From Escherichia coli (GTDB lineage Bacteria > Pseudomonadota > Gammaproteobacteria > Enterobacterales > Enterobacteriaceae), in assembly GCF_044324875.1 (NCBI RefSeq), contig NZ_CP172185.1: a DNA stretch of 64,000 nucleotides; one strand, given 5' to 3'. A program made the translations under genes and the position numbers. The notes below the pieces were generated by a model, which worked only from the letters and a program-made list of their open reading frames with translations, was not told the origin of the DNA and searched no databases. Positions 20,758 to 29,173 of this stretch are shown here, piece by piece. Each line of letters begins with the position of its first letter. Within the stretch, counting starts at the first letter, position 1.

Positions 20758-21080
20758 ACTTTCAGGCCTCTCTCATGTAACCAGTGGGTTGCACGCAGCC
20801 TGGCGTTTTCCTCACCGGCAAGCAGTGAGCGGATAATCCCGACCGCCTCGCTGTCGTCGTCCTTCACCGCGGTATGAAGAGTGATACCCCGGGCCACGCC
20901 ACGCTTTATCGTGATGACGCCTTTTTTCTCCAGTGCGCGAAGATGTTCCACCGCTGCATTCACTGAACGGTATCCCAGCATGGTTGCCACCTCCTGATTG
21001 GTTGGCGGGAAGCCACGTTCTTTCTGGTAAGAAATCAGCATATCCAGCACCTGCTGCTGGCATTGAGTTAACGTCGTCAT
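20754..21080 (-). CDS. LexA DNA-binding-domain-like protein lacking peptidase domain
   Basis: 108-aa ORF aligning by eye to the LexA N-terminal winged helix (QQQVLDML...GFPPT..E.A..LGYRS.NAA.EHL.AL.KKGVI). Confidence 0.6.
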   Translation of the reverse strand: MTTLTQCQQQVLDMLISYQKERGFPPTNQEVATMLGYRSVNAAVEHLRALEKKGVITIKRGVARGITLHTAVKDDDSEAVGIIRSLLAGEENARLRATHWLHERGLKV

Positions 21081-21729
21081 GCCGCCATCTCCCTGACCAG
21101 TTTTTCCGCCTGCTGGCGAACCTGCGCCAGAAACGCCTCACCACATGCCTCAAGTTCATCGCGCCCGATGTAGCTGATTGCCGGTCCCTTCCAGGTCTTG
21201 TCGAAAACAGCAATAGCACCAGCGAAGAAAGCGCCTGTCGGCACCTGCTTCTCGTCCTTCGGTATAAACCAGGCAGGCAGTTCAAAACCAATACGCCCGC
21301 GAATAAAAGCAATATGATCTGCATCTTCCGGCCACCACACTTCGCTGGTGGCCGCTTTGATCAGGAAAACATAGCGCCCGCCCTTATCACGCATGGCACT
21401 GGCATGTTTCATGATGTAACGCATGCCGGTGATGTATTGCCCCTCATGCTGACTGGCGCGGCTGTATGGGGATTACCAAAGGCAGCACCTTTAAGCTCCG
21501 CAAGACGTTCTGACCAGTCATGCGCCAGCGCGTTATCTTCCGCCGTGTAATACGCGGCACATTTGGCGTTATCACCGTCAGTAAACAGATCCAGAACAAA
21601 CGGGCCAAACAGTGTGTTAATTCCCCAGAAAATGTTGTCCGGCGTGCGCCACTGATCGCCCACTTCCTTCAGTTCATGGGCTGGTTTGTTCCGCAGTTCC
21701 ACCAGTGCCTGACAATATTTATTACTCAT
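21077..21729 (-). pseudogene. Phage DNA N6-adenine methyltransferase (Dam family) split by a 1-nt frameshift
   Basis: ORFs 21409-21762 and 21077-21424 together match the Dam family (WRTPD...NAKC..YYT...FGNP); frame breaks in a G4 run at 21469-21472 exactly at the NPPY motif. Confidence 0.7.
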
Positions 21730-22223
21730 TAAGCCCCCACGTAATTCCCTGACAGATACCACTCTTCACCCGATGCTGCGCGCTTGCTGCTTTTCTGTAA
21801 GCACTGCTCACGACGCGCCAGAAAATTGTTTCGTTCTGGCTGGGAGTGGCTTTCACGGAATGCCGCCATCCACACCGTTGCAGCACGACGGTATAAGCCC
21901 CTGGACTCCAGTTCTTCAGCCTGGCGGGTCAGGCACAAAATCACCCGGGGATCGTTAGTGCCGACATAGAAATTGCGCACAGGTCTAGTTTCACGAACTG
22001 GTTGTGGTTCCGGCTCCTGCGCTCTCTCAGTCAGGCGCGGGAAATGTCTGCGTGTATCTCCTTCACAACGGTGAGCCACACGCCCACTCTGACGTAACTT
22101 GCTTGCTGACTGCAGAACGCGCTGTCGTGAGTAACCTGCAAAAGCATCCGCAATGTCTCCGGAAGTACACCCCGGATGGGCTTCAATGAATTTCTGAACT
22201 TCATTCAAAAGACTCATAATCAC
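21729..22223 (-). CDS. Phage early protein, putative regulator
   Basis: 164-aa ORF whose stop overlaps the Dam start (TAATG). Confidence 0.4.
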   Translation of the reverse strand: MIMSLLNEVQKFIEAHPGCTSGDIADAFAGYSRQRVLQSASKLRQSGRVAHRCEGDTRRHFPRLTERAQEPEPQPVRETRPVRNFYVGTNDPRVILCLTRQAEELESRGLYRRAATVWMAAFRESHSQPERNNFLARREQCLQKSSKRAASGEEWYLSGNYVGA

Positions 22224-23161
22224 CCCCTGAATCCTGCCGGGATCTGGCTGTAGTCCACGTTGTCGTAACTGGCTTTGAAGTACGGGTCTTCGCGTTTTTC
22301 TGTGTGCGTGCTGACGGACGGCGATAAGCGCAGGGAAAGCTCATCCCATTTTTCCCGCAACTTCGACGGGCTGAGCACGTTACGGCACCAGAACGGATCG
22401 CGGCTGACGCGGCTGTACATCTCGCAGATTTGTTTGTGAGTACGACCATCCTGCACACACATCAGGCGAATTTCGTTTGCCCAGGCTGTCCAGTTAGGTT
22501 CTTTGGGACGAACCACCTCGCCGTCACATTCGGCGGCCTGCTCGTACAGGGCGATGATTTTTTTCCAGAGCCACTGTGCGCAGGTCAAATCATCCTGCGT
22601 TCCCCACTGGCGCTTTTTAGGGCTGAATACAACCGCATCAGGATGGCGAGTTAAAAAATCCTGTTCATCCATCTGCGTGTCCGGTTGCGAAGCGTCCGGA
22701 CGAGAAGGTTTTTTATCTGATGGATCATGTTTTGATTTTACTGACGGATCCCCGCCAGATTCTGACGGGTGAAAACCCGCTTTTTTGCCAGATTTCGACG
22801 CATCAAATTTTGACGGGTCAGATTTTGATGCGTCAGATTTTGACGGGTCAGAATCTGACAGTTGAGAAAATGCCGCTGCCTGAAGCTTCGCAACGTTAAG
22901 CTGATAAACATTCGACGCATTGCGGTTACCCTGGCGACGCGCCTTACGCGTTAACCAGCCTTCTGCTTCCAGCCGTGCGATAGCCGTTCTGACGGTACTC
23001 ATCCCCGCGCCAATCTGGCGGGCAATGGTTTCAATTGATGGCCAGCACACACCTTCGTCATTACTGAAATCAGCCAGGCGGGCCATAATTGCCACGCTGG
23101 ATAATTTCATGCCTGACGCAGCGCAACCATCCCATACATAGCCGGTTAATTTAGTGCTCAT
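22220..23161 (-). CDS. Replication initiation protein, O-like with N-terminal HTH
   Basis: 313-aa ORF with HTH near the N-terminus and an internal iteron-encoded repeat, in the O position. Confidence 0.65.
   Translation of the reverse strand: MSTKLTGYVWDGCAASGMKLSSVAIMARLADFSNDEGVCWPSIETIARQIGAGMSTVRTAIARLEAEGWLTRKARRQGNRNASNVYQLNVAKLQAAAFSQLSDSDPSKSDASKSDPSKFDASKSGKKAGFHPSESGGDPSVKSKHDPSDKKPSRPDASQPDTQMDEQDFLTRHPDAVVFSPKKRQWGTQDDLTCAQWLWKKIIALYEQAAECDGEVVRPKEPNWTAWANEIRLMCVQDGRTHKQICEMYSRVSRDPFWCRNVLSPSKLREKWDELSLRLSPSVSTHTEKREDPYFKASYDNVDYSQIPAGFRG
22762..22860. repeat. Iteron array (putative phage origin) inside the O-like gene
   Basis: About six direct repeats of a 12-15 bp unit related to GATTTTGACGGG. 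Confidence 0.5.
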
Positions 23162-27767: not shown

Positions 27768-28304
27768 ATGTCATTTATTAAAACTTTTTCCGGGAAGCAT
27801 TTTTATTATGACAAGATAAATCAAGACGACATCGTTATTAACGATATCGCGGTTTCCCTTTCAAATATCTGTCGCTTTGCAGGACATCTTTCACATTTCT
27901 ACAGCGTCGCCCAACATGCGGTGCTTTGCAGCCAACTGGTGCCGCAGGAATTTGCTTTTGAAGCGTTAATGCATGATGCAACAGAAGCGTATTGCCAGGA
28001 CATCCCGGCGCCACTGAAACGCCTTCTTCCTGACTATAAACGGATGGAAGAAAAAATAGACGCCGTAATCCGTGAGAAATACGGGTTACCCCCAGTTATG
28101 AGTACACCCGTGAAATATGCCGATCTCATCATGCTGGCAACTGAACGCCGCGATCTCGGGCTTGATGATGGCTCTTTCTGGCCAGTACTGGAAGGTATCC
28201 CGGCAACAGAGATGTTCAAAGTTATTCCACTGGCACCGGGCCATGCCTACGGGATGTTTATGGAACGCTTCAACGAGTTATCGGAATTACGCAAATGTGC
28301 ATAA
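27768..28304 (+). CDS. HD-domain phosphohydrolase (YfdR-like 5'-deoxynucleotidase)
   Basis: 178-aa product with H..HD metal-binding signature (HAVL...MHDATEAY). Confidence 0.65.
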   Translation: MSFIKTFSGKHFYYDKINQDDIVINDIAVSLSNICRFAGHLSHFYSVAQHAVLCSQLVPQEFAFEALMHDATEAYCQDIPAPLKRLLPDYKRMEEKIDAVIREKYGLPPVMSTPVKYADLIMLATERRDLGLDDGSFWPVLEGIPATEMFKVIPLAPGHAYGMFMERFNELSELRKCA

Positions 28305-29173
28305 CTCATGTAGTTAGTTTTTCTGGCGGGAGAACATCCGCATATCTTGTTCACCTGATGGAAGAACAAAGAAAGGCTGGCAATAACGTCTGCTACATCT
28401 TTATGGATACCGGTTGCGAACATCCGCTGACATACCGCTTTATCCGGGAGGTTGTGAAGTTCTGGGACATACCACTAACTGTGTTACAGGTCGATATAAA
28501 TCCTGAGCTTGGGCAGCCAAATGGTTATACAGAATGGGAGCCAACGGATATTCAGACACGAATGCCGGTGCTTAAACCGTTTATGGACATGGTTAAAAAG
28601 TACGGCACGCCATACATCGGCGGCGCGTTCTGTACTGACAGGCTAAAACTCATCCCTTTCACGAAATACTGCGATAACCATTTCGGGCGAGGTAATTACA
28701 TCACATGGCTGGGTATTCGTGCAGACGAACCCCGTAGGCTGAAACCGAAATCGGGCGTCCGGTATCTTGCCGAGCTGTCAGATTTTGATAAGTCGGATGT
28801 TATCCGGTGGTGGCGAAAACAACCTTTTGATTTGCAAATCCCGGAGCATCTCGGGAACTGTGTTTTCTGCATCAAAAAGTCAACGCAAAAGCTGGGGCTT
28901 GCATGTAAAGACGAACCAGGTCTGATGCGAGTTTTTAATGAGCTGGTTACAGGCAAACACGTCAGGGATGGTCATCGCAGAACAGGTAAAGACATTATGT
29001 ACCGTGGTCACCTGACGCTTGACGGAATTGCCAGAATGTCTGCCAACAGCGACTACAGAAATTTGTATCAGGCGATGGTACAGGCCAGGCGATTCGATAC
29101 CGGCTCGTGTTCAGAGTCATGTGAAATCTGGGGTGATCAATTGGAATTGGAATTCGAAGAGGTAGGGGTATGA
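28295..29173 (+). CDS. PAPS reductase-like PP-loop protein
   Basis: 292-aa ORF with N-terminal SFSGGRTS PP-loop ATP-pyrophosphatase motif. Confidence 0.7.
   Translation: MCITHVVSFSGGRTSAYLVHLMEEQRKAGNNVCYIFMDTGCEHPLTYRFIREVVKFWDIPLTVLQVDINPELGQPNGYTEWEPTDIQTRMPVLKPFMDMVKKYGTPYIGGAFCTDRLKLIPFTKYCDNHFGRGNYITWLGIRADEPRRLKPKSGVRYLAELSDFDKSDVIRWWRKQPFDLQIPEHLGNCVFCIKKSTQKLGLACKDEPGLMRVFNELVTGKHVRDGHRRTGKDIMYRGHLTLDGIARMSANSDYRNLYQAMVQARRFDTGSCSESCEIWGDQLELEFEEVGV

Follow-up and report, generated by a model that had tools for sequence, protein, structure and literature searches.

A segment of about 225 base pairs (bp), positions 22652-22876 of a 64,000-nucleotide stretch of Escherichia coli DNA (contig NZ_CP172185.1 of RefSeq assembly GCF_044324875.1; in the following, the window), is most probably the replication origin of a lambdoid prophage of the SfIV/SfII/CPS-53 type and lies inside the prophage's own initiator gene. 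A preliminary description of this DNA had interpreted a series of direct repeats (iterons) in an O-like gene as the mark of the origin. This interpretation is supported by sequence comparison, and every prediction of it that can be tested on the sequence was borne out: The DNA of the repeats is under purifying selection apart from the peptide it encodes, the motif also turns up in a second reading frame, the repeat sequence shifts with the type of the initiator's N-terminal domain, the DNA directly downstream is AT-rich and melts easily, the C-terminal domain is a true homolog of that of lambda O, and the position within the gene and within the linker of the protein is as in the phages lambda and phi80.

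The repeat array

Tandem Repeats Finder reported 4.3 copies of a period of 15 bp (81% matches) and 2.1 copies of a period of 30 bp (88% matches) at 22789-22852; a second repeat search agreed in register and added a copy at 22741-22770. The consensus CAGATTTTGACGGGT was found nine times in the window when up to three mismatches were allowed, and six of these matches are located within 22756-22857. In the shuffle control, the mean was 1.8 matches per whole window, and none of 100 shuffles reached nine. The core TCARAWYYTGA occurs exactly at 22803, 22818, 22833, and 22848, i.e. in four adjacent steps of 15 bp; the array supplies eight of the 11 strand-matches of this core, for which 0.86 are expected in the whole window.

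The repeat unit is exactly 15 bp long and consists of a variable spacer of 4 bp and a near-palindrome of 11 bp, TCA-N5-TGA, which typically reads TCAAAATCTGA on the gene strand. All sites together occupy nucleotides (nt) 300-407 of the 942-nt gene. No second cluster of the motif and no other repeat array was found elsewhere in the window. A lone exact copy of the core (TCAGATTTTGA) was noticed at 28778-28788, inside an open reading frame (ORF) of 292 amino acids on the plus strand (28295-29173); it is isolated and probably due to chance.

According to the repeat finders and to the comparison of consensus matches with shuffles, the direct repeats of the preliminary description are real and located where it had placed them. 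Its estimate of about six units of 12-15 bp can be refined to units of exactly 15 bp, five of which stand in tandem, accompanied by one detached site and one site in the AT-rich stretch. The range proposed for the repeats, 22762-22860, is correct as a location; however, the putative functional element is larger and extends over about 22652-22876. The repeated SD.SK peptide was also read correctly, as the units encode SDSDPSKSDASKSDPSKFDASKSG within the minus-strand ORF 22220-23161.

Conservation of the DNA and of the encoded peptide

Homologs of the initiator were gathered at graded distances, expressed as identity of the N-terminal domain: 88% for Citrobacter phiNP, a Klebsiella phage, and Escherichia phage LLS; 81% for Yersinia YeP1; 59-64% for phiP27, Stx2_KH16-043, EKP1, and Klebsiella Kp4866-6. 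Three further chromosomal loci also belong to the set, whose divergent members were taken from phage database and protein-cluster look-ups. In every gathered homolog, a tandem array with a period of 15 bp and about three to six copies (Tandem Repeats Finder) follows right after the winged-helix domain. In a sequence logo of 45 units from nine homologs, the information content is 0.87-2.0 bits over the 11 positions of the core, compared to 0.25-0.77 bits over the spacer of 4 bp; the six TCA/TGA bases of the half-sites carry 1.07-2.0 bits. Even the three wobble positions of the core (1.0-1.6 bits) are more informative than the first and second codon positions of the spacer (0.5-0.8 bits). Of 44 serine codons in the core, 40 are TCA, compared to 16% of the serine codons elsewhere in the same genes (Fisher p = 1e-20). 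Similarly, the third base of the codon preceding GA is T in 37 of the 45 units, at a position where the amino acid varies (S, F, I, T, N, P, Y).

The comparison with eight homologs separates the constraint on the DNA from that on the protein. In the N-terminal domain, 61-88% of the amino acids are identical, and the same codon is used for only 33-57% of the identical residues. In the linker, amino acid identity is lower (45-82%), whereas the same codon is used for 64-96% of the identical residues. A sliding scan of 10 codons against the four homologs possessing the same type of C-terminal domain gave a synonymous-codon identity of 73-100% in codons 96-170 (22652-22876), compared to 25-65% upstream (codons 1-95) and 35-68% downstream (codons 166-275). 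We propose that this zone of suppressed synonymous change delimits the origin.

The motif is not bound to one peptide. In phiP27 and Stx2_KH16-043, one copy lies in another frame and is translated to TLQNL(D/T) instead of DPS(D/E)SG. Two copies of the motif (C)CCTTCAGAWTCTGG, separated by about 30 nt and read in two different frames (FDPSDSG, LTLQNLD), are located at nt 421 and 453 of the phiP27 gene and at nt 436 and 468 of the gene at locus L088. An E. coli clade (locus L095) differs in its recognition helix; the array of this clade consists of 4.6 copies of GTCCAGAAACTGAAC, has an unchanged period and position, and encodes RPETE, not DPSKS. Because the constraint acts on the DNA and the motif occurs in another frame and with another peptide, the repeated DPSKS/DASKS peptide is apparently a by-product of the DNA element. 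The detached iteron was found at the equivalent place in phiNP, Klebsiella ST101, LLS, phiP27, Stx2_KH16-043, EKP1, L095, and L097; it has two core changes in YeP1, and the equivalent site is divergent in Kp4866-6 and in the Rac-like locus L096.

The initiator and its repeats

The best PHROG family of the initiator is 391 ("replication initiation O-like", E 1.5e-135). On the DNA level, the gene is 98.9% identical to gp41 of Shigella phage SfIV and 98.6% identical to the "O protein family protein" gene of SfII. The gene order is lambdoid: a cI-like repressor gene, a gene in the position of cro, and a CII-like gene precede the initiator. The sole Pfam domain above threshold is HTH_36 (residues 23-70, E 4e-11). 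An AlphaFold2 model, built on an alignment of 31 sequences, predicts for residues 1-100 the helix/strand pattern of a winged helix, with block means of the predicted local distance difference test (pLDDT) score of 64-89. Residues 165-280 are predicted to form a helical domain (block-mean pLDDT 72-94), and residues 103-154, which connect the two, are predicted to be disordered (pLDDT below 50). This linker corresponds to 22700-22855, i.e. to the repeats plus the AT-rich stretch.

A Foldseek search of the PDB with the N-terminal domain gave MarR/ArsR-type winged-helix proteins as nearest, weak matches (best E 2e-3, none at or below 1e-3); for the C-terminal domain, the same search returned no match. 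By BLASTP, the C-terminal domain is similar to lambda O (E 8e-26 over residues 70-277) and to gp15 of phi80 (E 4e-25); the stretches conserved with the C-terminal domain of lambda O are WGT..DLT.A.W, WAN.IRLM..DGR.H, and FW..NVLSP.KLR.KW. No N-terminal similarity to lambda O was detected by BLASTP. In the Pfam scan, PF04492 (Phage_rep_O) was not matched by the initiator, whereas lambda O itself matches this family with E 6e-36. Judged by sequence comparison, the initiator is half a member of the lambda O family, the C-terminal domain being common to both and the N-terminal domain not. The reading of the gene as O-like in the preliminary description needs one qualification: The C-terminal domain is a true homolog of that of lambda O, but the N-terminal domain belongs to HTH_36 and not to Phage_rep_O.

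The pairing of repeats and N-terminal domains was judged by qualitative comparison. Within the close clade the core remains TCA-N5-TGA, and clade-specific changes are small: The phiP27 group has G at position 4, the Kp4866/L096 group has T at position 9, and L095, whose repeat sites read CCAGAAACTGA, has C at position 1. Two distant HTH_36 "O" proteins have dyad-symmetric repeats of their own just after the winged helix, namely three copies of GGGGCAGGAGCTGCCC in phage Min27 (L092, 1438-2106) and two copies of TATGCCAYCWGATGGCA in Klebsiella phage ST13-OXA48phi12.5 (L093, 1438-2172). These repeats are probably the origins of the respective phages.

Escherichia virus mEp460_4F5 (L101, 723-1703) is a natural chimera, which combines a nearly identical C-terminal domain (96.6% nucleotide identity) with an unrelated N-terminal domain. 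The latter is accompanied by its own five repeats of about 23 bp (GGTCAAAATG…CCATCG) and by an A-rich stretch of three copies of ACAGAGAATACA. The junction, at the sequence TCTCGTCCGGACGCTTCGCAACCGGAC, is located exactly at the element GTCCGG-N11-CCGGAC. In other homologs, the module of N-terminal domain and repeats seen in the window is fused to two other types of C-terminal domain. The first is Phg_2220_C, identified by Pfam in phiNP, with similar C-terminal sequences in LLS, YeP1, and Kp4866-6; the second is the phiP27 type, with genes for a DnaC-like loader and a DnaB-type helicase downstream. Such module swapping is what a pair of initiator and iterons would predict, and it is classic for O genes of the lambda family.

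The AT-rich flank and the anatomy of the segment

Along the direction of the gene, the array is followed by a spacer with A6 and T4 runs, the detached iteron, the GATCC-headed A-rich repeats, and an inverted repeat. Table 1 lists the coordinates of all features. The 30-bp duplex of lowest stability, both in the gene and in the region 21.5-24.1 kb, is 22711-22740, with a free energy of -32.9 kcal/mol compared to a gene mean of -42.4 kcal/mol (standard deviation 3.0). The GC content at 22700-22739 is 30%. Two GATCC-headed A-rich repeats are contained in the AT-rich segment; their GATC sites are at 22723 and 22747, i.e. 24 bp apart, and a Dam-type methyltransferase is encoded near most of the related loci. 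L095 and L096 share the inverted repeat, and L097 has it in nearly conserved form. A DnaA box (TTWTNCACA, at most one mismatch) was not found within 22652-22876.

Table 1. Location of the initiator gene, its domains, and the elements of the proposed origin in the window
Feature	Position	Strand	Basis or remark
Replication-initiator gene, O-like, 313 amino acids	22220-23161	-	ORF list, PHROG 391, Pfam, nucleotide identity, AlphaFold2
N-terminal winged-helix DNA-binding domain (residues 1-100), presumed iteron reader	22862-23161	-	HTH_36, AlphaFold2
C-terminal domain (residues ~165-280), homolog of lambda O and phi80 gp15	22322-22669	-	BLASTP, AlphaFold2
Zone of suppressed synonymous change, proposed extent of the origin	22652-22876		Sliding codon scan
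Tandem array of five 15-bp iterons	22788-22862	-	Repeat searches, consensus matches, homolog logo
Array cores TCA-N5-TGA	22848-22858, 22833-22843, 22818-22828, 22803-22813, 22788-22798	-	Last core degenerate: TCGAAATCTGG
Spacer between array and detached iteron: A6 run, GCGGG, T4 run (gene strand CAAAAAAGCGGGTTTTCACCCG)	22766-22787	-	Outline conserved in DNA alignment of nine homologs
Detached iteron, gene strand TCAGAATCTGG	22755-22765	-	Best conserved single site across homologs
AT-rich, easily melted segment, candidate DNA-unwinding element	22702-22751	-	Duplex stability, GC content, DNA conservation in nine homologs
Seventh TCA-N5-TGA site, inside the AT-rich stretch	22725-22735	-	Motif survey
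Inverted repeat GTCCGG-N11-CCGGAC, downstream edge of the constrained zone, junction of the N-domain/iteron module	22679-22701	-	Sequence, homologs
PerC-family/YfdN-like protein, 164 amino acids, MarR-like N-terminus, in the position of lambda P	21729-22223	-	Pfam, PHROG

Comparison with known origins

In lambda, the iterons likewise lie in the middle of the gene, at nt 349-433 of the 900-nt O gene. Further likenesses are the internal dyad symmetry of the repeats, the location of the origin within the linker that joins the N-terminal DNA-binding domain to the C-terminal domain, and an AT-rich, easily melted stretch downstream; in the lambda record, the iterons are followed by A-rich sequence. 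Differences concern the N-terminal domain (Phage_rep_O in lambda, HTH_36 here), the two GATCC-headed repeats in the AT-rich part, and the gene that follows the initiator, which is of the PerC family here and not a homolog of P. For phi80 (JX871397), four binding sites of gp15 are annotated in the middle of gene 15 (nt 365-441), and the C-terminal domains are homologous. However, the phi80 sites are of the …GGGAA type with a spacing of 21 bp and are unrelated to those described here, as is the N-terminal domain; moreover, phi80 possesses gene 14, which is similar to lambda P. In Pantoea, a homolog of the initiator even carries the source annotation "Replication protein 15". To the right of their AT-rich regions, lambda (TCGTCAGAGAATTCTGGCGAATCCTCTGAC; L094, 860-895) and phi80 (TCGTCCGAGAATTCTGACGAATCCTCTGAC; L098, 6780-6815) have a motif in common that loosely resembles the detached iteron and GATCC region at 22740-22771 of the window (CCGTCAGAATCTGGCGGGGATCCGTCAG); this resemblance could be due to common ancestry or to chance.

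That lambda, P22, and L contain distinct iterons inside their O or 18 genes is an accepted rule (PMC8022706). The origins of the Salmonella phages P22 and L are inferred from imprecise repeats in the O-like gene 18, which in phage L are six copies of an 11-bp sequence (PMC8022706). Their repeat sequences are different, and gene 18 is paired with gene 12, which encodes a DnaB-type helicase, whereas no helicase gene is adjacent here.

Iteron plasmids with initiators of the RepA/RepE/pi type also combine an array of direct repeats, a winged-helix initiator, and an AT-rich unwinding element alongside. In the window, by contrast, the repeats are within the coding sequence of the initiator and the region contains no DnaA box. 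The spacing of plasmid iterons is typically roughly 22 bp and thus longer than the 15 bp observed here. The Pfam scan gave no match to Rep_3 and only a sub-threshold match to RP-C (17 bits, cut-off 24.4 bits); the AlphaFold2 model contains one winged helix, compared to two in Rep_3-type initiators. A search of a plasmid database for minimal replicons containing the initiator gene returned only large plasmids and prophage-bearing or phage-sized circular records, an outcome that does not count as evidence of origin function.

Two candidate anchors were rejected. The first was oriJ of the Rac prophage: L096 encodes a homolog of the initiator beside a DnaC-like gene, but YdaU of K-12 is a DUF1376 protein and not of HTH_36 type, so that findings on oriJ do not carry over. 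The second was an origin study of the Stx phage "P27" (PMC7466680); the iterons described there are lambda-type (ATCCCTCAAAACGAGGGA) and not those of the HTH_36 gene of phiP27 (NC_003356).

A model of initiation

Taken together, these features suggest the following course of events. Dimers of the winged-helix N-terminal domain would bind the 11-bp TCA-N5-TGA near-palindromes, namely the five tandem sites, the detached site, and the site within the AT-rich stretch. The nucleoprotein complex formed on the array would destabilize the adjoining AT-rich stretch 22702-22751, and the lambda-O-type C-terminal domain would then recruit the helicase-loading machinery to the opened DNA. We infer binding and unwinding from the anatomy of the segment, the pairing of repeats and N-terminal domain, and the analogy to lambda; recruitment, the weakest step, is suggested by the homology of the C-terminal domain only. 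In terms of the structural model, the origin may have been placed where the protein tolerates it, namely in the disordered linker between the domains. As 15 bp correspond to about 1.4 helical turns, dimers bound to neighboring sites at this strict spacing would face roughly opposite sides of the helix; the super-period of 30 bp reported by Tandem Repeats Finder fits a register of every second site.

The gene in the position of lambda P overlaps the stop codon of the initiator gene by 4 nt. Its counterpart differs in other homologs, where DnaC-like, DUF1627, methyltransferase, or small unknown genes are found. It is conceivable, though rather improbable, that this origin family works without a phage-encoded helicase loader of known type. 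The C-terminal domain, whose counterpart in lambda binds P, would then recruit DnaB/DnaC of the host, either directly or via the PerC-family (YfdN-like) protein, and the HTH_36 domain would read palindromes phased by 15 bp, with dimers on alternating faces of the helix. If this were true, it would constitute a new way of coupling the recognition of an origin to the loading of the helicase, and the module concerned is present in about 38% of the complete E. coli genomes. A lambda-O-type C-terminal domain without a P-type partner is the sole thread of this analysis with wider potential.

Several observations argue against the segment being an origin of the proposed kind. In tblastn searches with lambda P, phi80 gp14, and two DnaC-like loaders, no match was detected in the window. 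The sites of lambda are four in number, 18 bp long, and spaced by 20-24 bp, whereas the cores found here have 11 bp and a strict spacing of 15 bp, with five in tandem and two detached. With such short, 15-bp-phased sites, the lambda O-some is not a direct template for the geometry of the complex. In the SfIV record no rep_origin is annotated, and the paper on the SfIV genome (PMC3851460) mentions no origin. In Stx2_KH16-043, both GATC sites are changed to GAACC; GATC sites and Dam methylation were considered as a needed feature and, although the sites are kept in most homologs, were left out of the mechanism. Finally, the RNA of the array region folds unusually well.

A literature search, which included yfdO/CPS-53 and generic queries, gave no description of this origin. 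This version of the origin thus seems to be undescribed, while its architecture is the one expected for a lambdoid replication module.

Alternative explanations

The constraint on the DNA indicates a function, but not which one. The repeats might form a protein-binding array that acts in cis on transcription, on the titration of the initiator, or on copy number, with initiation occurring elsewhere; the binder could be the initiator, the PerC-family/YfdN-like protein, or CII, for example. Iteron-like sites have control roles in some replicons, and two other DNA-binding proteins are encoded next door. We nevertheless regard a purely regulatory array as unlikely: The type of repeat tracks the initiator's own N-terminal domain, also in natural chimeras with a different downstream gene, and the array is always coupled to an AT-rich segment of low stability. 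In addition, its position agrees with the experimentally defined origins of lambda and phi80, and the window offers no other cluster of the motif or repeat array.

The strong fold mentioned above could also signal an RNA element in the initiator mRNA, for example a hairpin controlling translation or stability, or the constraint could be due to an overlapping antisense gene. Segment 22695-22870, which does not include the inverted repeat, folds at -53 kcal/mol, compared to a mean of -35.5 kcal/mol for shuffled sequences (z = -4.7), and an antisense frame (ORF 22720-22899 in the window) is open through the repeats, as is the case in several homologs. Over the origin region, at least one antisense frame with at most three stops exists in 12 of 12 homologs, and in seven of the 12 one is fully open, although the regions differ in length and the frames are not comparable. 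However, a strong fold follows automatically from tandem near-palindromes, and alleles differ by whole units, so that any long hairpin would change from allele to allele. Constraint also extends to the AT-rich part and the inverted repeat, whereas pairing in the predicted fold reaches no more than the 5' end of the AT-rich part. Rfam gave only a miRNA-like match far below threshold (30.7 bits; 97 bits are needed), which was rejected as a spurious effect of the palindromes. We regard an RNA element or antisense gene as very unlikely.

The idea that the repeats are low-complexity, slippage-prone sequence encoding a flexible linker rich in Ser, Asp, and Lys, with no role of the DNA in cis and an origin elsewhere, is contradicted by the comparison and very unlikely. 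It would suit the predicted disorder of the encoded linker and the copy number differences between alleles. However, conservation of synonymous sites is far higher here than in the structured domains, although that of the peptide is lower. The palindrome formed by the conserved bases crosses from codon to codon and takes in wobble positions, and the motif is also found in a different frame and with an entirely different peptide. Finally, the spacer bases of the same units vary freely, so that the conservation of the core exceeds what recent duplication alone would give.

Distribution and significance

The origin segment proposed here matches 2058 of 5426 complete E. coli genomes. SfII and SfIV, two phages that convert the serotype of Shigella, also possess the initiator gene; SfIV, which has the same module, was isolated as such a phage from S. 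flexneri (PMC3851460). Copy number variation was assessed with 80 loci from IMG/VR (L008-L087), whose N-terminal domains are 99-100% identical to the query and which therefore inform on copy number and not on divergence. They encode 52 distinct proteins, among them iteron copy-number variants of 303, 318, and 323 amino acids. Alleles with two units less or with one or two additional units were observed, and several of the point changes are located in the spacer; a few genes are truncated (145 and 205 amino acids).

In the CPS-53 prophage of E. coli K-12 MG1655, the whole segment and the C-terminal half of the gene are present upstream of yfdO with 97.6% identity (L100, 7250-7590). This copy comprises the iterons, the AT-rich part, and the inverted repeat, and the N-terminal DNA-binding domain has been lost; the segment in K-12, the standard laboratory strain, is thus an orphan origin, if the assignment proposed above is correct.

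Knowing the start site and the sites of the initiator would aid the annotation of such prophages, help to interpret peaks of read depth after induction, and be of use when replicons are to be built or avoided. The pairs of N-terminal domains and iterons, together with the domain swaps, provide a natural series on which the evolution of initiator specificity within a coding sequence can be studied. For specialists, the origin itself is unsurprising, as lambdoid replication modules are expected to have one.

A further observation concerns the neighborhood. On the minus strand, a phage N-6-adenine-methyltransferase gene (TIGR01712) at 21077-21762 is split into two overlapping ORFs: ORF 21409-21762 covers profile positions 1-69, and ORF 21077-21424 covers positions 74-165. 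This split points to a frameshift, caused either by decay to a pseudogene or by a sequencing error.

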